In this document: positions 2,609 through 53,818 of the stretch, in pieces | Layout: every line of letters begins with the position of its first letter | Position numbering within the stretch: position 1 is the stretch's first letter | Translations under genes and position numbers: made by a program | Notes under the pieces: model-generated | The model's input: the letters and a program-made list of their open reading frames with translations, nothing else | The model's database searches: none | Told to the model about the DNA's origin: nothing | Assembly: GCA_030613245.1 (NCBI GenBank) | Contig: JAUWMI010000003.1 | Span: 65,062 to 129,061, forward strand | Origin: Candidatus Sumerlaeota bacterium | GTDB lineage: Bacteria; Sumerlaeota; Sumerlaeia; MWCT01; JAUWMI01 | DNA length: 64,000 nucleotides | Direction of reading: 5' to 3'

Positions 2609-2697
2609 TCCTCGCCCCTACATTTACCCGAATGGATACCCATTTGAATTAACGCCATTCTCTGATCTGAACTGAAGGTTGACGGATCTTGGGAATA
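2609..2697. repeat. ~85-bp element (copy 2), upstream of carA
   Basis: Same orientation and a similar distance from the downstream car gene as copy 1. It is preceded by the hairpin gtaggggcgaggtctcctcgcccctac (2595..2621). Confidence 0.6.
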
Positions 2698-2862
2698 ATT
2701 CTTTCATTGACTGCGTGACCCCTTTTTGTAATACTTTGTAATTACCAGTAGTGAAGGGCCTTTTTCAAGCATGAAAAATGGGGCAGTGCGGCGATTCATA
2801 TGCGGGAAGTGATGTTTTTCCCATTTTCGCTTTTAGTTAAACATGCGGAGGGGGATGTTTCC

Positions 2863-3498
2863 ATGAAGGGACGCTTTCAAGAAACAATTTTAATCCTGGC
2901 TATTTTGATCTTTTGCTTTTGCTCAGAATCAATTCTGGCACAAAGTAATGCGTGGAATGTAGAGCTGGTCGGGCAAATTGGGGGAGCTTGCAATGCAGTC
3001 TTTGTCCAGAGGAATTATGCTTACATTGGCGAGGGGTCAAATCTAACAATACTGGATATAAGCGATCCATCAAACCCAGAGCCTATGGGCAAGGTTCTCC
3101 TTCCTGGTATTGTGTATGGCGTCTACGTCTCGGGGAATCATGCCTACGTGGCTGATAAGTATGAGGGCTTACGGATAGTAGATGTGAGCATACCCTCCTC
3201 GCCTCGCGAAGTCGGCTATTATGATACGCCGGGCTGGGCCAGGAGCGTGTATGTTTCCGGCAATTATGCCTACCTGGCTGACGGTTCAGGCCTGAGCATT
3301 ATTGACATCAGTAATCCCGCAGCGGCTTTTCAATGCGGGTATTATGAAACGCCGAGCGGGGCTCCACTTTACGTTGATGACATTGAAGTCTATTTGCCTC
3401 CATACGAGCTTGCACCGTCAGGAGATGTGACTGTTGCGGATCCCCGCTGGACACTGTACGAAATAGAAGTGCAGCGACTCGGAAGTTCCCTGGTGTGA
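2863..3498 (+). CDS. Secreted LVIVD-repeat (beta-propeller) protein whose C-terminal tail is shared with paralogous loci
   Basis: ATG at 2863 follows a GGAGGGGG SD. Signal peptide MKGRFQETILILAILIFCF. Repeated YAYVADxxxGLxIVDVSxPSxP units. The last ~40 codons are >90% nt-identical to the 3' end of the gene at 17302..18207. Confidence 0.7.
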   Translation: MKGRFQETILILAILIFCFCSESILAQSNAWNVELVGQIGGACNAVFVQRNYAYIGEGSNLTILDISDPSNPEPMGKVLLPGIVYGVYVSGNHAYVADKYEGLRIVDVSIPSSPREVGYYDTPGWARSVYVSGNYAYLADGSGLSIIDISNPAAAFQCGYYETPSGAPLYVDDIEVYLPPYELAPSGDVTVADPRWTLYEIEVQRLGSSLV

Positions 3499-3630
3499 TA
3501 GCGTGATAGGAGCAATCAGACACAAGTGAAGCGGGCAGGCGAAAAACTTCAGCTCGCCCACTATTTTCTTGAATTCCTCGAATTGTCTACAGAAGAGGAA
3601 AACACAATACAATGCAGGGGAGGTGATACC

Positions 3631-5457
3631 GTGAAAGAGAAATTTGCACAACGGATGCTGCTTTTGACGCTTTTCATGCTTTGCAGCGCGTCAATTGCCC
3701 TGGCGGGATACCAGCCGGTATGGGAGGAGCACTTTAGCGGTGGAACATATGATCAGACATGGACGGATATGGTTGTAGGTGGCGACCCGGGAACTTTCAA
3801 TATCGTCAGTTCAGACGATTATTATGCGGCTGGGCTTGTTTTCCCAAACCCCAGTGGAGACAACTATGCGTTGCGTTGCGATGTCGTGTCGACCAACCAC
3901 GGAACCAGAGGCATGGTTGCTGGCAATAGTACCTGGACTGCCTACATGGTCTCCATCTATATGTTTGTGTGCATTGATGACTCGTATCGTCACGACACGT
4001 GCCTCATGGGACGTACAAACGTGAGCGCCGCAAGCTGGGGCAGTGGAGTAAAGTTCGGCTATTATACGGAGGATTGGTGGGGTATTCCGGCTCCCTGCTG
4101 GGGCATGCGTAAGAACTACGATGGGCCAGACCCGTTCACCAGCGATACCTTGGGTGATCATGGGTGGCACCGCCTGACAATGGTCTTTTCAGGCAACCAT
4201 GTTGACGCCTATCTGGACAAGTCGTACGAGGAGATTGTTAACGACATAAATGCTAGCAACCCACCCCTTCTCCAGTCTGATTACGACACAGACCCTCATC
4301 CGAGCGCAGGAGGCATTGGGTTTTATGGCGTCTATATGGATATGGTTGAAGGAGAGCCAAGCGGGGCTCCACTTTACGTTGATGACATTGAAGTCTATCT
4401 GCCGCCCTATGAGCTTCCCCCTGCGCCAACACCATCACCAACGCCCTGCCAGATTGTCTTTGACTTTATCCCGGATAGTGACGGCTGGACAACCGGAGGT
4501 GCGCCGCTTGTCTTCTCCACTCCTGAGTTTGGTTGGGAACCTGGCTATTTAAAGATGGTCTCTCAAACTAATACAAACACGTTCGGCTACTGGCAGAGCA
4601 CGCCGGGAGCAGTGCCGGTGGATGCGAATTTTCTGTATCGTGCACGCTTCAGAGTGATGACCGACATTACGGAAAAATCCGTTGTTCCGCAGATACGGTT
4701 GCGGGCAAACTCGTCGAATCTGCAGCAGTATGATTTGCTTTCGATCGAGAGTGCCGGTGATGGTGGTGCGTCACCTGCCGTGGCGGGCACGGATTACGAT
4801 CTTTATTTCGCGCCGCCTGCGAATGATGCCGACGCGCTGCTTGCATTTGACCTTGTCAATTTCAACCCTGACGATGCAGCGGTGGCTGAGCTTGCTCTGG
4901 ATAGCGTGACTGTTGATCGCTTTTCTCTTGATTCGCTCTCGACGCCGACAATTGTTTGCGATTACACTTTTGATGTGACTGCAGATGGCTGGACAACTGG
5001 TGGTGCACCGACCGTGTTCAGTCCGCCGGACTACCGGCATTCTTATGGGGCACTTGAGCTGCGGGCAACTACGAATACGAATACGTTTGGGTTCTGGGTA
5101 AACAATCCTACGGATATTATGATTGAGGCGAATCAATTGTATTGCGGGATTTTCGAAGTGCGCACGGATGTCACAAATCCTGCGCTTGTTCCGGAGATGT
5201 GGCTGCGGTTCAATGCCGGGAATTTCCAGGCCTCGGAAACCTTCGGCATCACTAGCTTTGGCGATGGGGCAAATTCACCCGGCACCACAAACACAATATA
5301 TAACCGGCTCTATTTTTTGCCGCCTGCGAGCTGCGTTGGCGAGAATCTGATCGTTTCGTTTGATATACTGAACTTCAATCCAGACGATGCAGCCGAGGCG
5401 TCGCTCTTACTCGACCGCGCAACGATTGAAGCCCTCTCAATCCCAACCGCACCCTGA
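3631..5457 (+). CDS. Secreted protein: ~270-aa N-domain, Pro/Thr linker, then two tandem ~165-aa uncharacterised domains
   Basis: GTG start at 3631 after GGAGGTG. Signal peptide MKEKFAQRMLLLTLFMLCSASIALA. Two repeats bear DGWTTGGAP...TNTNTFG.W...LNFNPDDAA. The N-domain is a paralog of 17302..18207. Confidence 0.75.
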   Translation: MKEKFAQRMLLLTLFMLCSASIALAGYQPVWEEHFSGGTYDQTWTDMVVGGDPGTFNIVSSDDYYAAGLVFPNPSGDNYALRCDVVSTNHGTRGMVAGNSTWTAYMVSIYMFVCIDDSYRHDTCLMGRTNVSAASWGSGVKFGYYTEDWWGIPAPCWGMRKNYDGPDPFTSDTLGDHGWHRLTMVFSGNHVDAYLDKSYEEIVNDINASNPPLLQSDYDTDPHPSAGGIGFYGVYMDMVEGEPSGAPLYVDDIEVYLPPYELPPAPTPSPTPCQIVFDFIPDSDGWTTGGAPLVFSTPEFGWEPGYLKMVSQTNTNTFGYWQSTPGAVPVDANFLYRARFRVMTDITEKSVVPQIRLRANSSNLQQYDLLSIESAGDGGASPAVAGTDYDLYFAPPANDADALLAFDLVNFNPDDAAVAELALDSVTVDRFSLDSLSTPTIVCDYTFDVTADGWTTGGAPTVFSPPDYRHSYGALELRATTNTNTFGFWVNNPTDIMIEANQLYCGIFEVRTDVTNPALVPEMWLRFNAGNFQASETFGITSFGDGANSPGTTNTIYNRLYFLPPASCVGENLIVSFDILNFNPDDAAEASLLLDRATIEALSIPTAP

Positions 5458-5523
5458 CCTTCGGGAAAATCCTCATGTAATCAAATGTCAGGGCGTTTAG
5501 TTAAACGCCCCTACAGACTTATG

Positions 5524-5632
5524 CGAGGGGACCCCTTTTGAAAAAGGGTTACCCCTCGCGCTCCCCTCCTAAACCTTTCCGTACGGGCAATTTCATCCGC
5601 CTTCGCCAGGCTTCGGCGAATGAAATCGCCAC
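5524..5632 (+). repeat. MITE-like structured repeat, copy 2 (short form)
   Basis: Shares the first ~110 bp with copies 1 and 4. It is flanked by cccctacag ... ctgtagggg (REP-like hairpins at 5490..5514 and 5669..5697). Confidence 0.7.
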
Positions 5633-5855
5633 TGGCTTCTGGTTTGCCGGAGCAGATGTCTGGCCACCTGTAGGGGCACGCTGCAGCGTGCCCCTACATC
5701 ATGTGAAGACAAAATGCCTTCGCGACAGCCCGCCACAGGCGGACAAGCGCGCCCTTCCCCCGGGGCTGCTGCAGCAAATGAAAAAGTGTTTTACAAACTT
5801 TGCATGCTTCTGTATGTAAGTTCGTACGTGCAGACTGGAAAAGGGGATAAGTCGG

Positions 5856-7451
5856 ATGATGCAGCGGTTTACAATATGGGTGATTGTTGGACTAGCGATG
5901 ATAGGAGTCGGTGGTGTTCATGCAGTTGAGCGAAGCGAGACCTTGATTTATAATGTCGGGACCGAGCCGGAGACGCTTGATCCCGCGCTATGCACTGGCA
6001 TTCCTGAGGCTTCGATCATTCTGAATTGTTTCGAGGGGTTGATTCGACTGGACGCGGAAGGGCGGGTGTATCCTGGTGCGGCGGAGCGTTGGGAAGAGTC
6101 AGCAGATGGCAGTACGTATACGTTCCATTTGCGCAAGGCGCGCTGGTCGAACGGTGATCCTGTGAGAGCGAGCGACTTTGTCTATGCGTGGCACCGCGTG
6201 CTGCGTCCCGGAACTGCATCCGAGTATGTTTATCAGCTCTACTATATTCGTGGGGCGCGGGACTATACCACTGGTAAGCTCGATAACCCTAGCTCTGTCG
6301 GCATCCGCGCTATTGATGGTCAGACCCTCGAAGTTCAGCTTGAGAGCCCTACTCCCTATTTTCTTTCACTTCTGGCACACACGACGTATATGCCGGTGAA
6401 CCCACGCGTTGTGGCGAATAATCCTGAGTGGGCGTTGGCTCCTAAGACGTACGTAGGCAACGGTGCGTTTCAGATGGTTGAGTGGCGGCATCACAATCGT
6501 CTGAGGTGCAGAAAAAATCCGTACTATTGGAACGCAAAAGCGGTTCGGCTGAAGGAGCTTGTATATCGCATGATTGAAGAGGAATCTACGGAATTGACGG
6601 TGTTCGAAACGGATGCCATTGACGTAACTCACACAGTGCCACTTCCAGACATTCCGCGCCTCGAGCGAACTGGCCAGCTCCAGCGCTCTCCCTACATTGG
6701 GACGTACTACGTCTGTTTCAATACTCGGAAGGCGCCGTTTGACAACCCAAACGTGCGTAAGGCATTCACGCTGGCAGTGAATCGTCAGATAATCGTAGAT
6801 AAGATCACCCGTGGTGGGCAGGTGCCGGCACGGGCGTTTGTGCCGCATGGGGTGAAGGATGCTGATGGCCGAACTGACTTTAGAACAGTGGGCGGCAACT
6901 ACTTTTCGGATAATGCAGTGAAAGAGGCGCAGACGCTGCTGGCCAAAGCCGGCTATCCTGGCGGCAAGGGCTTTCCTGTAGTCACGTATCTCTATAATAC
7001 GATGGAACAACACAAGATTATTGCTGAGGCAATGCAAGATATGTGGCGTCGGGCGCTGGGAGTCAAGGTGCGTCTTCAGAATCAGGAATGGAAAGTTGTG
7101 ATCAAGAACCGGCGCGATGGTAACTACCAGTTTGCCCGCCACGGCTGGATTGGCGACTACCTTGATCCTATGACGTTTCTCGATCTTTTCGTGACCGAAA
7201 GCGGTAACAATGACGCACAGTGGTCAAACCTGCGCTATGATGCCCTGATCCAGGAAGCAAAGCAACTGCGTGATCAAGACCGCCGGATGGCCTTGATGCA
7301 CCAGGCTGAGGCGATTCTCTTCGACGACATGCCGATTTGTCCGATCTATTATTACGTAAACCTCTACCTTCAGAAACCGTACGTTAAGAACGTCATTCGC
7401 AATCCGCTAGGATACATTGATTTCACACAGGCGTATATTGAACGTCCATAG
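5856..7451 (+). CDS. ABC transporter substrate-binding protein, family 5 (OppA/DppA-like)
   Basis: Signal peptide. Length and motifs of SBP_bac_5 proteins (e.g. ...GAAERWEESADGSTYTFHLRKARWSNGDPV...). Confidence 0.8.
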   Translation: MMQRFTIWVIVGLAMIGVGGVHAVERSETLIYNVGTEPETLDPALCTGIPEASIILNCFEGLIRLDAEGRVYPGAAERWEESADGSTYTFHLRKARWSNGDPVRASDFVYAWHRVLRPGTASEYVYQLYYIRGARDYTTGKLDNPSSVGIRAIDGQTLEVQLESPTPYFLSLLAHTTYMPVNPRVVANNPEWALAPKTYVGNGAFQMVEWRHHNRLRCRKNPYYWNAKAVRLKELVYRMIEEESTELTVFETDAIDVTHTVPLPDIPRLERTGQLQRSPYIGTYYVCFNTRKAPFDNPNVRKAFTLAVNRQIIVDKITRGGQVPARAFVPHGVKDADGRTDFRTVGGNYFSDNAVKEAQTLLAKAGYPGGKGFPVVTYLYNTMEQHKIIAEAMQDMWRRALGVKVRLQNQEWKVVIKNRRDGNYQFARHGWIGDYLDPMTFLDLFVTESGNNDAQWSNLRYDALIQEAKQLRDQDRRMALMHQAEAILFDDMPICPIYYYVNLYLQKPYVKNVIRNPLGYIDFTQAYIERP

Positions 7452-17023: not shown

Positions 17024-17301
17024 AAGTACGCCTCCTTGTCGATATTCTTTTCACTCTATCGAGTGACATCCATGTGACAGTGTTGCTTCATAGCCACCGG
17101 GTGTTTGCCAGAATCAGACAAATTGCACATTATTCCGCTCAGTGGGTATCAGGGTAGTTTGTATCAAGCGGTGAAGAAAAGGGTCAAGCAGGAATTCAAA
17201 AAAATAGCGGGCGAGCTGAATTTTCATGCTCGCCCGCTCGGGCTGTGTCTTATTGTCCCCATCATGCTATCGCGCCTGGAAATTTCTAAATCGCTGCACT
17301 T

Positions 17302-18207
17302 CTATTCGTACAGAGTCCAGCGCGGATCCGCAGCAGTCACATCTCCTGACGGTTCAAGCTCGTATGGAGGCAAATAGACTTCAATGTCATCAACGTAAAG
17401 TGGAGCCCCGCTCGGCCCAATACTAATCATATCCGCATAGGCGGCGTAAAACCCAACGCCTCCTGCAGTCAGGAGAGCACTCCCCTCACCGGCACCAGGG
17501 TTAGTTAAGTAATCCATCCGGATAAGAGGTGGAGTACTCGCGTTTATGTCGTTAACAATCTCCTCGTACGACTTATCCACATAGGCGTCAACACGGTTGG
17601 TGACGTCAAGATCTGTGCCTGAAAAGACCAGGGTCAGGCGATACCACCCTTGGTTTGGCAGTGTTTGCTGAACCCATTCTTCTGGCGCGTTCATTGCTGG
17701 AGTATCAAAGTTTTTACGCATGCCCCAACCGGGAAAAACCAGACTCCAGCCAGCCGGGTCTATTGGATAATAGCCGAGTTTTACTCCACTGCCCCAGTGT
17801 GGGGCGTCTATGTTAGTGCGTCCCATGAGGCACGTGTCGCCACGATGCGTTGGATCGGTACTGATGCACACAAACATCTGGATGGAGACCATGTACTCGG
17901 TCCAGGTATTCTCGCCACCAACCAGGCCCCTGGTTCCGTGATTGAGCGACACGACATCGCAGCGCAACGCATAATTGTCTCCACTGGGATTTGGGAAAAC
18001 GAGTCCAGCTGGATAATAATCGTCTGAACTGACGATATTGAAAGTTCCCGCGTCGCCACCCACAAGCAGATCCGTCCAGGTCTGATCATATGTGCCGCCG
18101 CTAAAGTGCTCTTCCCAAACAGGCTGGTATCCCGCCAGGGCAATTGACGCGCTGCAAAGCATAACAAGCATCAAAAGCAGCGGCCGTTGTGCAAATGTGT
18201 GTTTCAC
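17302..18207 (-). CDS. Secreted protein, truncated paralog (N-domain only) of the 3631..5457 protein
   Basis: GTG start. Signal peptide MKHTFAQRPLLLMLVMLCSASIALA. About 70-75% aa identity to the N-domain of 3631..5457. Ends ...YVDDIEVYLPPYELEPSGDVTAADPRWTLYE* and is followed by a perfect terminator (GCGGGCGAGC-loop-GCTCGCCCGC-T7). Confidence 0.7.
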   Translation of the reverse strand: MKHTFAQRPLLLMLVMLCSASIALAGYQPVWEEHFSGGTYDQTWTDLLVGGDAGTFNIVSSDDYYPAGLVFPNPSGDNYALRCDVVSLNHGTRGLVGGENTWTEYMVSIQMFVCISTDPTHRGDTCLMGRTNIDAPHWGSGVKLGYYPIDPAGWSLVFPGWGMRKNFDTPAMNAPEEWVQQTLPNQGWYRLTLVFSGTDLDVTNRVDAYVDKSYEEIVNDINASTPPLIRMDYLTNPGAGEGSALLTAGGVGFYAAYADMISIGPSGAPLYVDDIEVYLPPYELEPSGDVTAADPRWTLYE

Positions 18208-19068
18208 GCTGTCACCTCCCTATTTGTTGTATTGTGTTTTCCTCTTCTGTAAACTCCTAGAGGAACTCAAGAAACCATATTCTGACTAGCAGACTTAAGA
18301 TTTTTGTGCAAGGGAAATCTTGCCTTTTCCTGGGTAGTTACCGCATTTTTTGCAAAGCGCCCCTTAAGAGTCCTTGCGTAGATATCAGGGATTCATTTGT
18401 ACATAGTTGAAGATGGTCATATAAATGACATTTTGGCTAGTTTATAAATTGTTCGAAACGGAAGAGAGAAGAAGTCAGGAATCAAAAGGAGGCTCCTTAA
18501 GGCAAGCGGTATGAGGCTTATAGTGCTGGACCATAATCCTCAAGCGTGAATTCTTACGCCAATAAGGTAATGGCAGAAACCGGTGTTGATATTTCAACGC
18601 ATCATTCAAAGAAGGTTTGAGATTGTTGTGGCAAAGAAAAAATAATTTGAGTAATCGTTATAGTCATAGTGGCACTGTCCCTGATAGCGTGTTTGTGGTT
18701 CAGGCTTCGCTCCCGGCCAAATCGCCTTAGGCTTCTTCAGATACACGCAAACCGTTATAATTTTTATGCCATGTTGCGCCGAGGGAAATGGCTATTGCTT
18801 TTCGCATAAATAAACAAAGCCGCTGAAGGCCTTATTCTTGTGCGAATGCTTGGTGTTAAACTGTGCCATTCAACGTGGCACGGGCATCACGCCACAGGCG
18901 CATTTTCAACTTGCCAGTGTAGATTCATCCGCCTGGGCGGATGCCACACATCGAACAAAAAGAGATTCTTGGGATTCCATAGTTGGTAGTTGTAGGGGCG
19001 TTTAATTAAACGCCCCTAACATGCTGTACCGTTATCTATACAAATCTCGATAAGATAGGACGCGGCTT

Positions 19069-19986
19069 ATGAATAGAGCCCAATTGAGCATCGTTACCGG
19101 GGCTTTTGGGTATACTGGTAAGTACATAACCCGGCGGCTTCTCGAAATGGGCGAAAGGGTGAAAACCATCACCGGCCACCCTAACAGGCCGAATCCTTTT
19201 GGTGGCGAGGTAAGTGCGGCGTCATTTAATTTCGACAAACCCGCAGAATTGGTCAAGAGTCTTGAAGGAGCCGCAACTCTGTACAACACCTACTGGATCC
19301 GCTTCACCTACAAGCGAGTCACCTTTGATCAAGCCATCCAGAACACTCTTACTCTGTTTAAAGCAGCCCGGGAGGCTGGGGTACAGAGGGTTGTCCATTT
19401 CAGCATTACCAATCCCAGTGAGGACTCGCCACTGCCTTATTTCAGGGGGAAGGCGATTCTGGAAAAGGCGCTTATTGATTCCGGCTTGTCTTACGCTATC
19501 ATCAGGCCAGCCGTGATATTCGGTCTCGAGGATATTCTGATCAATAACATCGCCTGGTTTCTACGGAAGTTTCCGATATTAACTGTACCCGGCTCTGGGA
19601 AATATCAACTTCAACCGGTCTACGTTGAGGATGTGGCGGACATAGCTGTTAGCGCAGGTCATCGGAATAAAAACAGCATCATTGATGCAGTCGGCCCGGA
19701 AACATACTCCTACAATGATTTGGTCAAACTCATTGCGGAGACAATAGGCAGCACGGCTCGCATCATTCACGTGCCACCACGCCTGGCGCTTGCTCTTGCC
19801 AAGGTTCTGGGTTTCATCGTGCGCGATATGGTATTGACGCGGGAAGAAGTCGACGGCCTGATGCAAGGCCTTCTGGTATCCAGGGATCCACCAACCGGGA
19901 AAACGTATTTAAGCCAATGGCTAAAGCAGAACGCAGATATAATTGGACGTCAGTATGCTTCCGAAGTGGATCGGCATTACCGATGA
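19069..19986 (+). CDS. NAD(P)-binding NmrA/SDR-like epimerase/reductase
   Basis: Rossmann motif TGAFGYTG at the N-terminus. ~305 aa, NmrA-like. Confidence 0.6.
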   Translation: MNRAQLSIVTGAFGYTGKYITRRLLEMGERVKTITGHPNRPNPFGGEVSAASFNFDKPAELVKSLEGAATLYNTYWIRFTYKRVTFDQAIQNTLTLFKAAREAGVQRVVHFSITNPSEDSPLPYFRGKAILEKALIDSGLSYAIIRPAVIFGLEDILINNIAWFLRKFPILTVPGSGKYQLQPVYVEDVADIAVSAGHRNKNSIIDAVGPETYSYNDLVKLIAETIGSTARIIHVPPRLALALAKVLGFIVRDMVLTREEVDGLMQGLLVSRDPPTGKTYLSQWLKQNADIIGRQYASEVDRHYR

Positions 19987-20180: not shown

Positions 20181-21410
20181 ATGAAAACCGTCAATCTTAT
20201 GATTTCCCTTCTTCTCTTATCTATCATGGCATCGGCTACTTTTTCAGCTGCTAAAGCTGAATTTGTGATTACTCAGCAAGATGAGGATGATATGATTAAG
20301 TTTGCAGAAGAACTTCGCGAATGGGCGCATTCGAAGTATGAACCTGATCTTTCTTCTTCGGTTGCTCATTTTATTCCTTTTGATGAGTTACAGAAATGCG
20401 ATGCATATAACAAGCTTATTGAATATGACTGGAAACTTGTTCCCTACCAGATTAGAAAAATTCAAATCGAAAATGAATTAAGGGTTATTATAGGTTCGGC
20501 ATTAGCTAATAGGGCCATTGAAAGTCTCGAAGATCTGTATAATTATCAAGGAGAAAAATTGCCAGGATTGTCCGAGGAGATTGCTATGCGGTTTCCTGGA
20601 AGATTGCTTTACCAAACCACAGTTGGCAAAGAGGTTTGTCAGAAGCTAGGGAGAAAGCCGGATCGTGCCGGGTTCTCGTGGATTGAGTGGTGGGGGGAGA
20701 ACAAAGACAGATTTAAATTCAAGACTAAGAAGCGCTTTAAGATCGGCACCCAATATAAATATTTCAATCACCCTCATGTTTCGACAGTACAACATGGGGG
20801 CCTTTTACATTTAGAGGCCGTTAATGCAACTTATCGGCAGATCATAGAGCGTGCAGCAGCTGAATTAGGAGTGAATGTGTTTATAGGGGAGCAGATAGAC
20901 ATAGACGTTATTTGTACGGTAAGAATGAGATCGGTAACCTTTGAAGAATTTGCATATCTCATTGGGCGAACGGTCCATGTAGGAGGGTTCAAATATTACA
21001 AGGATGGCAATAAGTATCATTTTGGAAGTGAGGTTGAGGCTAAGCCACGGGAAATCCTTGATGGTTGGGGTATAATGATGAATAGAACGGTGTTCTACGA
21101 AGGAGATACGATACCTGTGACGGTTATAACAAGAGGCACTGGAGAGTTAGTTGATCCATTAGATCGTGTATTTTATGACTATGGGAGTTTCAAAATTACG
21201 ACTAATAACGGCACAATAATTAGAGATTATAACATTCAAAGGAAAACAAAACCAACGCTGGAACTGATAAATAGAGAAAAAGATTGCACCAAAATTGATC
21301 TCAATTTGAGCAACTATTGTCAACTTCCGCCGGGCGAATACAATGTTAGGTTAAAGTATCTTTCGCATGAAACCCCATCTATTGCAATTGAGATTTATAG
21401 AAGAAAGTAA
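20181..21410 (+). CDS. Hypothetical secreted protein (409 aa) encoded on the low-GC insert
   Basis: Signal peptide MKTVNLMISLLLLSIMASATFSAAKA. AT-rich codon usage unlike the neighbours. No recognisable domain. Confidence 0.55.
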   Translation: MKTVNLMISLLLLSIMASATFSAAKAEFVITQQDEDDMIKFAEELREWAHSKYEPDLSSSVAHFIPFDELQKCDAYNKLIEYDWKLVPYQIRKIQIENELRVIIGSALANRAIESLEDLYNYQGEKLPGLSEEIAMRFPGRLLYQTTVGKEVCQKLGRKPDRAGFSWIEWWGENKDRFKFKTKKRFKIGTQYKYFNHPHVSTVQHGGLLHLEAVNATYRQIIERAAAELGVNVFIGEQIDIDVICTVRMRSVTFEEFAYLIGRTVHVGGFKYYKDGNKYHFGSEVEAKPREILDGWGIMMNRTVFYEGDTIPVTVITRGTGELVDPLDRVFYDYGSFKITTNNGTIIRDYNIQRKTKPTLELINREKDCTKIDLNLSNYCQLPPGEYNVRLKYLSHETPSIAIEIYRRK

Positions 21411-21611
21411 GGAGATTGACGCGCATCATCTAAGACGAGTTTTGTGGCTCAGTTCGTTTACCTAGATCGCGACTTTATCGATACTAAGAAAAGCCCCAAG
21501 CCCATGAGAAGCCAAGAAGCAAGTAGGGTCCTTGGTCAATCCTATGGCCAAAATGGAAGCTCAGGTAATGACCTGTTTGTCTAATTGGGTTAGCATCGAA
21601 AACTTGTAATA

Positions 21612-21925
21612 CAGGCGGCCCGGAAACATACTCCTATAATGATTTGGTCAGGCTCATTGCGGAGACAATAGGCAGCACGGCTCGCATCATTCACGTGCCG
21701 CCACGCCTGGCGCTCGCTCTTACCAGGATTCTTGATTTTATCGTGCGGGATGTCGTCTTGACGCGGGAAGAAATCGACGGCCTGATGCAAGGCCTTCTCG
21801 TATCCAGGGATCCACCAACCGGGAAAACGTATTTAAGCCAATGGCTAAAGCAGAACGCGGATATAATTGGACGTCAGTATGCTTCCGAAGTGGCTCAGCA
21901 TTACCGATGAGAAGGCGCCCACACA
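21612..21925 (+). pseudogene. Duplicated 3' fragment of the NmrA-like gene (right direct repeat; 88-aa in-frame remnant at 21644..21910)
   Basis: The remnant translates to ...LIAETIGSTARIIHVPPRLALAL...GRQYASEVAQHYR, about 90% identical to the C-terminus of 19069..19986. Confidence 0.75.
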
Positions 21926-27655: not shown

Positions 27656-29776
27656 CTACATGATGGGAAGGTTGCTGTTTTTGATTATCACTGTATCAAG
27701 GAAAAGGCTTCCAGTCTCTGCATCGATGCCGCCAAAGTTGAGCAGGTCGAATGAGAACTTCATCCCGGGATTTGGGCCGGTGATTGCACTTTCCGGCGGG
27801 ATGAAGTAGAGGGAATATGTCATGCCGGCAGGCGTCGGCGACGATTCAGCGTTGTCAGCGCTGTTAATCACCAGTCCGCAGGACTGCTGGAGATTATTCG
27901 TATTCATGCGCAGTCGGATGACCGGCACGAGCGCCTTGGGGGTAATGTCCGTCCACACGGTAAAGTCAACACGATAGATTTTGCCAGATTCCACCAGGAT
28001 CAGCGGACTGAGCCAGAAGCCGAAGTTGTTCTCATTAGAAGTGATGGCAATCTCAAGACTGCCAGTCGTGAATCGGCCTTCTGGTGAGGAGAACGTAGGC
28101 TCGGCGGCGCCGAAACTCCAGCCTTCGTCGGTCTCGTCAAAGGTAAAACTCTCTACGGGGGAGAAAGAGGGGATGTCGCTGAGGCTCCGCTTCTCGATAA
28201 TTATGTTATCGAGACTCAGAGTACCATAGGAGGCGTTAGCGGGATCAAAATTGAGCATATCAAACGCAATATAAAGGTCCGTTGGCACACTGGTAGGAGG
28301 GAACAGGTACATTTGGTAGGATGTCCCTAAAGGGGTAGGGGAGCAATCGGCAGTGTTTGCGCTTTCAATGAGAAAGATGCTGGCGGTTTGGTTATTTATT
28401 TCACCAAGGCGCAAGCGCAGCGTGGGAACCATAGCGGGAGTGAACAGATTGGTCTTAACGAGGCAAGTAGCCTGATACAGCGAATCGGTTGTTTTAGCAA
28501 AAGCATGTTCGGGGCTTTGCCAGAAGCCAAAAGTGTCAGTGTTTGTATTAGATATGAGCAGAATCTGGCCTCCAAAGGCATCAACGCCTGGCATCGAGAA
28601 GACGCCGGGCACGCCGCCAGTGGCCCAGCCTTCGCGGCCAGCATCAAACCCCGCACCATATACGCGGCTCTCGTTATAATACAGAGCCTTGAGCGAGCCA
28701 CTAAATGTGCCAAATTCTCCTCCACCCGTGGTTTCGCTGAACTCTCCCGTGAGCGAACCGTAGAGGAAAAGTCCCTTAAACGTACCAGTAGCCTCGGTTG
28801 AAAAGAGCAGGGCATCCATCTGGCGAGTGGATGAGGAGGTGCCTGGTCTTACGTTGCCCAGCACTACTCCTCGCATAGTTCCCTGCTCGGCATAGTCTGA
28901 CATGAAAAACTTTCCTGCGGTGAAGCCTCTGTCTTTCTGTGACGATGTGGGGTCAATAACAACGAAGGAACAGAGCTCAACTTCAAAGCGACCGGGCATA
29001 ACACCCAGGTCGCCGCCTGTGATTGTGCCGCTGTGAGACATGTTGACTTCCAGGGTTACGTTCGGAAACTCTGTGGTGGTGAGAGGGAAATCCGCGCTTC
29101 CATCAGGCGGGACAAACTGCACCATGTTCGTTCCGTTTTGTATTTCGAAGTCACTTGCCCGCGGCGCAGTAACCTGGCCAGTCTGTACAGCATACTCGGC
29201 GCTTGTGACAATATCGTCATAGAAAGAGCCGTTGAGCACGCCGGAAAAACTTGCCGAGCCTAACGACGAATATTCTCCATCCAGTCTGGCCACGAGCGTT
29301 TGACTTGTCAGGGCACCCGTTGCCCAATCCGGATCGCCCACCAACCATCCCTGAATTTGCGTATGGTTGTGCACATCAGCCACGAATAAACCCGAGACCT
29401 CTTCGTTAGTGTCGCCGTCATAGCTGAACGTTCCAACCGTAAATCCACGGCCTGAGAGATTGTTCATCGCGGTATCAATGACCAAAAAGGAGTAGCGCAC
29501 CAGAAACGCGCCTGGATGTGTGCCTGATGCTGCCAGACTGAGTGTATAGCCGGCGCTGACCATCGCGCTGTCATCACTGATCTCCAGCGTGAGATTCTCC
29601 CTCGTAAACTGGGCAACCGTGTCGTTGAGATTGAGCGATAGAAATGAGGTACTGCCCGGTGTTGCGGTGCCGCTCACCTGATTCGCGATTGGCGTATTAT
29701 CTGCGTGCGCCGCAGAGAGGCACAGCGCGCATAAAAACAGAGCAATCGAGCGGAGTTTCATCAGCTTCTCCTTCAC
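27656..29776 (-). CDS. Secreted protein (706 aa) with two C-terminal copies of the same uncharacterised ~165-aa domain found in 3631..5457
   Basis: Signal peptide MKLRSIALFLCALCLSAAHA. C-terminal repeats contain EGWATGG/EGWSFG...TNTDTFGFW / SNENNFGFW...LNFDPANA / LNFGGIDA. Confidence 0.7.
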   Translation of the reverse strand: MKEKLMKLRSIALFLCALCLSAAHADNTPIANQVSGTATPGSTSFLSLNLNDTVAQFTRENLTLEISDDSAMVSAGYTLSLAASGTHPGAFLVRYSFLVIDTAMNNLSGRGFTVGTFSYDGDTNEEVSGLFVADVHNHTQIQGWLVGDPDWATGALTSQTLVARLDGEYSSLGSASFSGVLNGSFYDDIVTSAEYAVQTGQVTAPRASDFEIQNGTNMVQFVPPDGSADFPLTTTEFPNVTLEVNMSHSGTITGGDLGVMPGRFEVELCSFVVIDPTSSQKDRGFTAGKFFMSDYAEQGTMRGVVLGNVRPGTSSSTRQMDALLFSTEATGTFKGLFLYGSLTGEFSETTGGGEFGTFSGSLKALYYNESRVYGAGFDAGREGWATGGVPGVFSMPGVDAFGGQILLISNTNTDTFGFWQSPEHAFAKTTDSLYQATCLVKTNLFTPAMVPTLRLRLGEINNQTASIFLIESANTADCSPTPLGTSYQMYLFPPTSVPTDLYIAFDMLNFDPANASYGTLSLDNIIIEKRSLSDIPSFSPVESFTFDETDEGWSFGAAEPTFSSPEGRFTTGSLEIAITSNENNFGFWLSPLILVESGKIYRVDFTVWTDITPKALVPVIRLRMNTNNLQQSCGLVINSADNAESSPTPAGMTYSLYFIPPESAITGPNPGMKFSFDLLNFGGIDAETGSLFLDTVIIKNSNLPIM

Positions 29777-45962: not shown

Positions 45963-46045
45963 AATTCTGCCAAAATAATAGGGCAGGCACAAGGCCTGCC
46001 CCTACGCCCCTGTTGTGTACGTTGTGTCGTAGTGGTTAATACGCC
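45963..46045 (-). repeat. ~80-bp REP-like repeat (inverted copy of 53488..53556)
   Basis: Contains the tagggcaggcacaaggcctgcccctac hairpin and the ggcgtattaaccactacgacacaac flank. Confidence 0.6.
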
Positions 46046-46599
46046 GTAGGCGCACATTTCAATAGCGTCGCTACTTTTCTGTACAAAACAAGATAAATAA
46101 AAAACGCTTCTGGAGGTGCTGCACCTCGAATTTAGCTGAGGCGGCCAGGCCGGGATTATGCACAGCCTTTCAGGCTTTATCCCCAGCTTGTTCACAAGGT
46201 TTTCACATGCTTTTCCACAGGATTATCCACACACCGTGTTCCAAGAGCATTACTCCCTTGCGGTCTGTTTAATAAGAAATTGCCACAGAGACACAGAGGC
46301 ACAGAGGTCTTCATTGAATTTATATCGGTGCTGGTATGACCGCTTCAAGTCTTGACACCTCCAGATTCGCAGAGTAGGAAATAAGATTGAACTGAGCAGT
46401 CGGGGAGTTTTCTATAACGCCGACTGCTCATCCTGAGGAGCGAAGCGACGAAGGATCTTAATAATGAGATCCTTCACGGAGTTTATCCTGAGCGAAGCTG
46501 AAGGGTTCAGGATGACGGGTCAGAAACTCTCCGACCCCTCAGATTGAACTATAATGCACACCGGCCAATGGTGTAATACGTGATTCGCCGACAAAGCGA

Positions 46600-47631: not shown

Positions 47632-47746
47632 CACAAAAAGATTGAGGCAATTTCATCCGCCTTGGTGGATGAAATTGCGCGCAAGTAAAGGTTTAGGAGG
47701 GAAGCGCGAGGGGTGACCCTTTTTCTAAAGGGTTCCCCTCGCAATG
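47632..47746 (-). repeat. MITE-like structured repeat, copy 3 (reverse orientation), between the two permease genes
   Basis: The reverse complement matches the gcgaggggaaccctttagaaaaagggtcacccctcgc and caatttcatcc..ggatgaaattg hairpins. Confidence 0.7.
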
Positions 47747-47798
47747 CCAAATGTGTCGCCTGGTTTAATTCAGGTTTTCTTAGACGAGAAGTGATACT

Positions 47799-53487: not shown

Positions 53488-53556
53488 CTCCTAAGGCGCA
53501 TTAACCACTACGACACAACGGAGGTGTAGGGGCAGGCCTTGTGCCTGCCCTATTAT
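53488..53556 (+). repeat. ~70-bp REP-like repeat (partner of 45963..46045)
   Basis: ggcgcattaaccactacgacacaac...gtaggggcaggccttgtgcctgccctattat. Confidence 0.6.
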
Positions 53557-53559
53557 CCC

Positions 53560-53737
53560 GGATTTTGCATCAGGAAAGGCGAGGGGAACCCTTTGGAAAA
53601 AGGGTTACCCCTCGCGCTCCCCTCCTAAACCTTTCTTTACGGGCAATTGCATCCGCCTTCGCTAAGCTTCGGCGAATGCAATCGCCACCTTATATCCTTA
53701 CACCTTTTTGTGATCGAGGAAAGATGCAATAGAGTGA
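53560..53737 (+). repeat. MITE-like structured repeat, copy 4 (long form), inside the gld-type operon intergenic space
   Basis: About 90% identical to 2399..2577. Compensatory change attgcatccgcc..ggcgaatgcaat compared with atttcatccgcc..ggcgaatgaaat in copy 2. Confidence 0.7.
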
Positions 53738-53818
53738 CCCTGACTTCTATTTTTGATGTAAGAGACGTCGTGTCGTCGTGGTTTAATATTCCTTTTTATT
53801 TCCTCTTAGTGTTCTTAG

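Follow-up and report, generated by a model that had tools for sequence, protein, structure and literature searches.

Homology-facilitated illegitimate recombination, i.e., one-sided homologous replacement, is a process described for the transformation of Acinetobacter and Streptococcus pneumoniae. In this study, we describe a locus with a comparable anatomy in a 64,000-nucleotide stretch of DNA from a Candidatus Sumerlaeota bacterium (assembly GCA_030613245.1, contig JAUWMI010000003.1, positions 65,062 to 129,061), hereafter the window. Two consecutive open reading frames (ORFs) near its 3-kb position, ORF A, which begins with LVIVD repeats, and ORF B, share sequence blocks with gene C, which lies near 17 kb on the opposite strand. 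Based on a comparison with related loci, it is probable that a single gene encoding LVIVD repeats followed by a conserved C-terminal domain (CTD) was split here by ordinary recombination between paralogues, which would have left ORF A as a stump and ORF B as a fusion. As in homology-facilitated illegitimate recombination, one end of the exchange lies in homology (the 5' end of the CTD) and the other at a GCCGAG microhomology, and resident DNA is replaced by unrelated DNA. In contrast to that process, the donor is a paralogous or unknown locus that is not demonstrably foreign, the process is inferred from the anatomy of the junctions, and there is an extra head-to-tail junction together with a 50-nt patch from a third paralogue.

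Three further types of system invite comparison. Like the families that carry the type IX secretion system (T9SS) CTD, the S-layer homology (SLH) domain or choline-binding repeats, at least 50 proteins have a common C-terminal tandem module (60-85% identity) behind unrelated heads, and ORF B adds a new head to them; unlike the T9SS CTD, SLH and PEP-CTERM, this module is predicted to be a tandem jelly roll resembling a carbohydrate-binding module (CBM), belongs to no Pfam family and was found in Sumerlaeota only in the collections searched. As in Neisseria pilE/pilS, Borrelia vlsE/vls and the Mycoplasma families, segmental copies of surface genes lie elsewhere and their patchy identity suggests conversion, but the silent-cassette array, the near-identical repeats, the expression-site logic and the recombination-promoting elements of cassette-based antigenic variation are missing here, the copies show age and decay, and a gene was disrupted as a result. 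The locus also resembles gene fission by insertion in that one ORF became two and the insert brought a stop, a terminator, a promoter, a ribosome-binding site and a start, although the insert is not a mobile element and the downstream ORF is more than the old C-terminal half, being a newly formed fusion in frame. Finally, as at the junction of a tandem duplication, the end of one unit is joined to the start of another.

The ancestral LVIVD-CTD gene and its two ends

The locus L005 carries an intact LVIVD-CTD ORF of 952 amino acids (aa), and its two ends match two separate blocks of the window. Positions 2695-3350, which cover the promoter region, the signal peptide and the first repeats, are collinear with L005 6726-7383 at 79.5% identity, and positions 4462-5515, which cover the CTD and 58 nt past the stop, are collinear with L005 8759-9812 at 82.5%; the signal peptides of ORF A and the L005 protein are nearly identical (MKGRFQ[E/K]TILILAILIFC). 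The LVIVD repeats in between (L005 7384-8758, ~1375 bp) are replaced in the window by 1111 bp (3351-4461). On the downstream side, L119 has an intact LVIVD-to-CTD transition followed by a dispersed repeat, D1, and the same gene for a substrate-binding protein (SBP), and it aligns with window positions 4462-5677 at 83.5% and with the SBP gene (5776-6468) at 80%. The same arrangement was found in L123 at 87-93% identity and L120 also agrees. In a pairwise DNA matrix, the CTD of ORF B was 82-86% identical to the LVIVD-CTD genes of L005, L119 and L120 and 65-74% identical to the other paralogues, and its downstream flank was matched by LVIVD-type orthologues only. Because of the collinearity with L005, L119, L120 and L123 and the CTD identities, a single LVIVD-CTD gene directly upstream of the SBP/opp operon is shown to be the ancestral state at this site, with one end of that gene surviving as ORF A (2863..3498) and the other as the 3' half of ORF B (~4470..5457). 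An earlier sequence-only reading of this stretch, the initial annotation, was centred on the shared tail, terminator and leader and overlooked that the two ORFs are halves of one former gene. Searches with the SBP, both in a metagenome scan and at the protein level, returned only two close relatives, on 1.7-1.9-kb contigs without useful flanks, and the remaining matches were at most 57% identical.

L005 also contains, at 6367-6674 and just upstream of its intact gene, a piece of the 5' end of an LVIVD gene with a frameshift. Its DNA is 81% identical to window positions 2898-3206, and its protein sequence shares 90% identity with residues 17-56 of ORF A. From its sequence, this fragment appears to be a further recombination relic in the lineage of the LVIVD-CTD gene.

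ORF A encodes 211 aa that comprise a signal peptide, LVIVD repeats and a borrowed tail. The Pfam LVIVD family (PF08309) matched it with E=2.7e-37 in three stretches, so that the repeats themselves are clearly recognisable. Only 163 of its residues are LVIVD-derived, compared with 952 aa in L005, 871 aa in P0025 and 951 aa in P0044, and ORF A therefore falls far short of a full-length propeller (163 vs ~950 residues). At the protein level, the LVIVD part shares 75% identity with the N-terminal end of the intact L005 product and 62% with P0025. An extra A within 3461-3463 abolishes the stop of the C family, and the sequence equivalent to the resulting extension is non-coding after the TAG in gene C, L001 and L002. 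ORF A is probably a stump, the remnant of a longer gene. The earlier claim that it is chimeric was correct, as an LVIVD 5' part is followed by a tail that is 96% identical to that of gene C.

ORF B is intact, starts with the GTG at 3631 and encodes 608 aa: a signal peptide, the domain shared with gene C (hereafter the N-domain, ~260 aa), which ends in PSGAPLYVDDIEVYLPPYEL, a Pro/Thr linker and two tandem domains that are 45% identical to one another. Its N-domain is 69% identical in protein to gene C, and no Pfam family matched ORF B. The imported leader contains a promoter-like TCTACA-16-TACAAT at 3586-3613. Because the ORF is intact and the ratio of nonsynonymous to synonymous divergence (dN/dS) of its CTD against the orthologues is ~0.18, i.e., purifying selection, ORF B is probably functional. 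The comparison further suggests that it is a derived, domain-swapped and lineage-specific fusion, which reverses the polarity that had been proposed when ORF B was regarded as the full-length paralogue: the 301-aa gene C is the norm of the family. The features of both loci are collected in Table 1.

Table 1. Coordinates of the features of the A-B locus and of gene C in the window (UTR, untranslated region)
Feature	Position	Strand	Remarks
Promoter and 5'UTR of the ancestral LVIVD-CTD gene	2695..2862	+	Collinear with L005 6726-6895; promoter-like site 2707-2735
Surviving 5' end of the LVIVD-CTD gene (codons 1-163 of ORF A)	2863..3350	+	Signal peptide and 3-4 LVIVD repeats
Borrowed 3' coding end of the C family	3351..3465	+	Last strand/hinge PSGAPLYVDDIEVYLPPYEL, then tail APSGDVTVADPRWTLYE; 96% to 17305-17416
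Read-through extension of ORF A, IEVQRLGSSLV	3466..3498	+	Runs into the equivalent of the C-family 3'UTR
Copy of the C-family 3'UTR with decayed terminator	3499..3572	+	Hairpin ~3530-3562, T-run TTTTCTT; 78% to 17190-17306
C-family leader at ORF B	3565..3630	+	88% to 18227-18274; kept in L001 and L002; GGGGAGG ribosome-binding site
N-domain of ORF B	3631..4420	+	Signal peptide and probable ConA-like domain; paralogous to the whole of gene C as far as YLPPYEL
Pro/Thr linker plus opening strand (CQIVFDFIP), both from a CTD paralogue of the Pro/Thr-linker type	4421..4470	+	Paralogue identity switch at J4, ~4465-4475
C-terminal module inherited from the LVIVD-CTD gene (3' part of ORF B)	4471..5457	+	Two tandem jelly-roll domains, ~165 aa each
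Downstream flank of the LVIVD-CTD gene	5458..5683	+	Includes D1b 5494-5683; SBP/opp operon from 5856
Gene C 3'UTR and intact intrinsic terminator	17190..17301	-	Kept in L001 and L002
Gene C	17302..18207	-	301-aa short form, ends DPRWTLYE; syntenic
Gene C leader	18208..18274	-	Aligns with the 3-kb leader, L001 and L002

Shared blocks, junctions and competing histories

The repeat search placed four homologous blocks at the two loci, all in reverse orientation at 17 kb: the coding tail (3351-3462 vs 17305-17416, 96% identity over 112 nt), the 3'UTR with the terminator (3462-3578 vs 17190-17306, 78% over 117 nt), the leader (3565-3612 vs 18227-18274, 88%) and the body of the N-domain (3618-4416 of ORF B vs 17356-18220 of gene C, 80-89% in several blocks). 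Within the 3-kb locus, a 66-nt direct repeat joins 3351-3416 with 4356-4421 (89%). The window contains exactly two occurrences of a 24-mer from the leader and exactly three of a 24-mer from the YVDDIEVY segment, and neither occurred in shuffled sequence; the unit of tail, terminator and leader was found at two loci only. The features listed in the initial annotation are all present according to the repeat search, the alignments and these counts, far above the chance expectation, although several need to be refined. The homology of its ~90% identical block is real but uneven, being high in the coding tail and much lower in the 3'UTR and terminator. What was described as an internal copy at 4357..4420 is a true repeat, but one that belongs to homology that extends over the whole N-domain. 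The hairpin followed by T7, reported for both loci, is intact at 17 kb only, where a hairpin of dG -26.5 kcal/mol (z -5.7) precedes a U7 run and is kept in L001 and L002, which qualifies it as an intrinsic (Rho-independent) terminator by its stable stem and U-run. The 3-kb copy (3530-3570) is degraded, with dG -14 kcal/mol, z -1.7, mismatched stem pairs and the T-run interrupted to TTTTCTT, and a terminator scan made no call there, so that it does not qualify as an intrinsic terminator. The 1-nt indel that was said to alter the translation stop is real: gaaatag at 3460-3466 in ORF A against gaatag in gene C lengthens ORF A by 11 codons.

The insert reads, in order, as the tail of the C family, its 3'UTR and terminator, the leader, the signal peptide with the N-domain, and ~50 nt of Pro/Thr linker, which is a permuted order with respect to the C locus; it also matches the orthologous C unit of L001, in the MAG (metagenome-assembled genome) CAYVXD. 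Four junctions delimit its parts. At J1 (3350/3351), LVIVD repeat 4 passes into the last strand of the N-domain at the GCCGAG microhomology, which is common to the LVIVD orthologue and the N-domain genes. At J2 (~3565-3578), the T-run of the terminator meets the start of the leader, and the homology to both C and L001 stops and restarts there; this is a head-to-tail unit junction of the tandem-duplication type, which substantiates the tandem-duplication junction that had been suggested earlier. J3 (4420/4421) joins YEL to the Pro/Thr linker, and at J4 (~4456-4485) a CTD of the Pro/Thr-linker type (PT-type) gives way to one of the LVIVD type at 80-97% identity: positions 4426-4455 are 83-87% identical to the PT-type paralogues L006, L007 and L018 and 33-53% to the LVIVD-type orthologues, which from 4486 on reach 73-97% in 30-nt windows. 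Altogether, this anatomy is that of a recombination product, in line with the earlier statement that the pattern is not simple vertical paralogy.

Identity along the insert is patchy. The ORF A tail is 93-98% identical to C, the 3'UTR 67-80%, and the latter is slightly nearer to L001 than to C (88% vs 80%). The 5' third of the ORF B N-domain is C-like (89-92%), and the rest is nearer to the L001 gene (84-94% vs 60-78% to C). Some gene conversion, which had been offered as one explanation, is compatible with this patchiness, but the tracts of high identity are short and partly explained by constraint, as L001 too is 96% identical in the YVDDIEVY segment. A strict orthology of the ORF B N-domain with the L001 gene was rejected, since its synonymous divergence (dS) is 0.47-0.59, compared with 0.17-0.24 for the flanking genes. 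The 66-nt repeat was likewise rejected as a target-site duplication or attachment site: it is the terminal redundancy to be expected when slightly more than one unit is copied across a head-to-tail junction.

In the history that we favour, the donor would have been a tandem pair of N-domain genes, the downstream one of which was already fused to the linker and the start of a CTD. In one event or a few, a segment of this donor would have replaced the internal LVIVD repeats, with the right end resolved by a crossover within the conserved start of the CTD, which would have served as the homologous anchor, and the left end by an illegitimate join at the ~6-bp GCCGAG microhomology in LVIVD repeat 4. 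The anchor of the recombination thus appears to have been the conserved C-terminal domain and not the tail. The tail of ORF A would then be in frame by accident, with the family stop lost later by the 1-nt insertion, and ORF B, a fusion of a probably lectin-like head to the old CTD, would be driven by the imported leader. Since no donor locus was found, we can only infer the single-step donor scenario, and serial events or template switching are possible.

Several observations weigh against this history. Neither an N-domain tandem pair nor another N-domain-CTD gene was found in the searches of 5.8 billion and 1.84 billion proteins, and the 50-nt PT-type segment can be accounted for only by a donor that was already fused or by an additional event. 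Both junctions are in frame, for which the chance is ~1/9 and which could hint at selection. The pairwise dN/dS of the LVIVD part of ORF A is 0.17, so that constraint does not appear relaxed, in a comparison of low power. Moreover, CAYVXD, the nearest of the sampled genomes, is in fragments at the A-B locus, and the sequence of the window is itself the assembly of a MAG contig.

The last point raises the question of an artefact, i.e., a chimeric contig joined during metagenome assembly or binning via the repeated CTD or N-domain sequence. The source is a 133-kb MAG contig, the CTD is present in many copies per genome (at least a dozen in CAYVXD, 62-89% identical to one another), related contigs often terminate near these genes, and J4 sits in conserved sequence. 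We nevertheless consider such a mis-join very unlikely because at J1 and J2 only ~6-14 nt are common to the joined partners, which is too short for k-mer mis-joins, and because the outer halves derive from the same orthologous gene, with the right half in its expected SBP synteny, which a random mis-join would not produce. In addition, the duplicated segments differ by 4-22% and so are not collapsed or duplicated reads, and both ORFs are intact. An ancestral array of three genes (LVIVD, a short N-domain gene and a long N-domain-linker-CTD gene), in which one deletion made ORF A and left ORF B old and unaltered, would have the merit that the terminator-to-leader junction is a natural intergenic region and that J1 is the single illegitimate junction needed. 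The resemblance of the short-form tail P-S-W-T-L-Y-E to the linker and first CTD strand P-W-Q-I-V-F-D hints that long forms may be ancient, and P0053 shows that the family tolerates C-terminal extensions after YLPPYEL. However, from ~4470 the CTD of ORF B and its flank are specifically orthologous to the LVIVD-CTD genes that adjoin D1 and the SBP gene in relatives, the identity switches from PT-type to LVIVD-type at ~4456-4485, the protein searches returned no N-domain-CTD gene, and L119 partly shows an intact LVIVD-CTD gene at the site without adjacent N-domain genes, which makes the array unlikely. Replication-based template switching of the type known as microhomology-mediated break-induced replication or fork stalling and template switching (MMBIR/FoSTeS), or serial independent conversions among paralogues, would suit the four junctions within 1.1 kb, three of which have micro- or short homology only, the mosaic of C-like and L001-like tracts in the ORF B N-domain and the 50-nt patch, which is hard to obtain from a simple donor. 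We regard it as quite unlikely: its outcome is the same as that of the paralogue recombination and nothing distinguishes the two, but every added step is less parsimonious and tandem duplicates are a simple source of J2.

The initial annotation had also proposed a cassette system, in which programmed shuffling would use the unit of leader, tail and terminator as a portable element to vary surface proteins. Such a system would account for a unit common to two otherwise unrelated gene bodies, for two in-frame fusion junctions, for the many heads on one conserved module in the wider CTD family and for a tail patch of 96% identity against 78-89% elsewhere. We consider it highly improbable. The unit occurs at two loci in 64 kb, the tail is found on a foreign body in one protein (ORF A) among the protein databases searched, and the family is tiny, with a syntenically stable home locus. 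The window yielded no multiple near-identical cassettes (two loci, 78-96% identity, dS 0.29-0.53), Pfam scans of its 30 large ORFs revealed no site-specific recombinase, invertase or reverse transcriptase, and the repeat search found no inverted repeats at the boundaries of the insert. The divergence of the copies points the same way: B and C are separated by a dS of 0.29 over the 5' part and of 0.53 over the 3' part, and the flanking orthologues of the window and CAYVXD differ by a dS of 0.17-0.24 (DNA identity 90.6-93%). Because the B-C divergence exceeds that between the species in the flanking genes, the terminator is decayed and no recombinase or reverse transcriptase was found, the rearrangement is shown to be neither recent nor active. 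The unit of tail, terminator and leader simply consists of the 5' and 3' ends that are normal for one small gene family, and nothing points to programmed or currently active shuffling.

The N-domain family and the C-terminal module

Gene C consists of an N-domain like that of ORF B and a 17-aa tail that ends in DPRWTLYE. Its neighbourhood (epimerase, C, NamZ, S49 peptidase, a 759-aa protein and OppC) has the same order in L001 and L002-L004, so that the home locus is syntenic in at least three other assemblies, and in L121 the epimerase is still near the C orthologue with two extra genes intervening. The family is small: the search of 5.8 billion proteins returned 7 members and that of 1.84 billion representatives returned 12, and all of its complete short members end in W-T-[L/I/V]-Y-[E/Q] after a short linker. 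The conserved synteny and C-terminus led us to reject the earlier view of gene C as a truncated paralogue; it is the normal short form.

YLPPYEL marks a domain boundary because P0053 carries a different, Ig-like extension after it. In the AlphaFold2 (AF2) model of C, which has low confidence (pLDDT 53, pTM 0.62), LYVDDIEVY is the last strand of a beta-sandwich, and the leading Foldseek matches of this model were nearly all ConA-like lectins or GH16 enzymes, with TM scores of only 0.3-0.5. No Pfam family matched the N-domain and a PDB sequence search with its profile gave nothing significant; on the model, it is a probable ConA-like lectin-fold domain. The family alignment, the domain boundary and the placement of the last strand identify the shared peptide as the last strand/hinge PSGAPLYVDDIEVYLPPYEL of this conserved domain followed by the family-specific C-terminus WT[LIV]YE. 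The possibility raised earlier, that the shared peptide is merely the end of a conserved domain, therefore largely proved to be the case for PSGAPLYVDDIEVYLPPYEL.

Some further observations concern this family. On the contig of P0005, a second gene begins 120 nt downstream of the type-I short gene. Two independent Logan assemblies (L121 9694-10560 and L122 306-1170) share an in-frame stop, LDKT*EEIV, at a position that is Tyr in relatives, and the frame runs on to a normal ...DPRWTLYE end, which may indicate either a pseudogene or a recoded codon. The C unit with its upstream intergenic region (window 17199-18794) is 78.6% identical to CAYVXD, compared with 90.6-93% in both flanks; the drop begins exactly at the end of the terminator, and the dN/dS of C against L001 is ~0.5. 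These values suggest an allelic replacement or the fast evolution of a secreted protein. Close to gene C, a second copy of the 3' end of the epimerase gene is present as a 300-nt direct repeat (19685-19984 vs 21609-21908, 93% identity). Between the two repeats lie ~1.6 kb that are absent from L001, L002 and L121 and contain a 409-aa ORF without a Pfam family (20181..21410). By its layout, this appears to be a second insertion with a flanking duplication.

The C-terminal 55% of ORF B matched 54 proteins at up to 85% identity, the best of which were LVIVD proteins. The heads of these proteins are unrelated (LVIVD, beta-helix, M10 peptidase, SBBP, fn3 and others), and the precomputed Pfam domains of the 54 homologues lie on the heads only. 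The AF2 model of the CTD has high confidence (pLDDT 96.2, pTM 0.93) and shows two jelly-roll domains. The best Foldseek match was the tandem CBM22 of Xyn10C (4xup, E=4e-12), with a whole-model TM score of only 0.31 and ~10% identity, and the predicted fold is accordingly that of a CBM-like jelly roll; neither the Pfam scan nor the domains of the homologues assigned the CTD to any described family of CBMs or of Pfam. CAYVXD has at least a dozen copies, and all 34 of the genome loci that were found belong to Sumerlaeota/BRC1 or to unclassified MAGs. A literature search gave no description of these modules in Sumerlaeota. From these searches, the CTD appears to be a Sumerlaeota-specific, previously undescribed module of many secreted proteins, and a more promising lead than the rearrangement itself. 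A more far-reaching proposal is that the CTD is a surface-anchoring or export module whose DNA, unusually conserved among the dozen or more copies in a genome, acts as a portable anchor for recurrent head swaps, with ORF B as a captured example and the free WT[LIV]YE as a second sorting or docking signal; we consider this doubtful.

The window contains a second gene with a tandem CTD (27656..29776, minus strand), the 706-aa product of which is 38% identical to the CTD of ORF B, has no Pfam family and resembles P0057 (700 aa, contig of L002) in size and module content. In CAYVXD, most of the CTDs (L006-L018) carry different heads, are 71-89% identical in DNA to one another and are mostly closer to one another than to the copies of the window or of CAZVVA; several of these genes are clustered on one contig (L007, L011). 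This pattern is compatible with a within-genome expansion or with concerted evolution.

Dispersed repeats and implications for Sumerlaeota

The D1 repeat, ~110-190 nt long, was found in the window at 2389-2578, 5494-5683 and 53550-53739 on the plus strand and at 47664-47753 on the minus strand, and also in L013, L015, L026, L009 and L119. It has two conserved hairpins, GCGAGGGGACCC...GGGTTACCCCTCGC and GGCAATTTCATCCGCC...GGCGGATGAAATCGCC, and neither D1 nor any other part of the window matched Rfam. In its arrangement it looks like a repetitive extragenic palindrome (REP) or a miniature inverted-repeat transposable element (MITE) of Sumerlaeota. Two direct copies flank the A-B locus. This pair was rejected as the mark of a mobile element carrying the locus, as L119 shows the downstream copy (D1b) to be ancestral there and D1 copies are dispersed among intergenic regions. 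Adjoining D1 copies elsewhere in the window, 45975-46050 and 53490-53556 form an inverted repeat pair (31-44 nt, 93-94%) with the hairpin GGGGCAGGCC...GGCCTGCCCC, which is probably another family of intergenic repeats.

The A-B locus illustrates that recombination between paralogues can both split a gene and create a domain fusion that comes equipped with a promoter, a ribosome-binding site and a signal peptide, and that an apparently complete ORF of a MAG, such as ORF A, can be a stump. For annotation, ORF A is best described as a probable remnant, ORF B as a lineage-specific fusion and gene C as a canonical member of its family. Beyond this locus, the CTD module may define how the uncultured phylum Sumerlaeota displays or targets its exoproteins.

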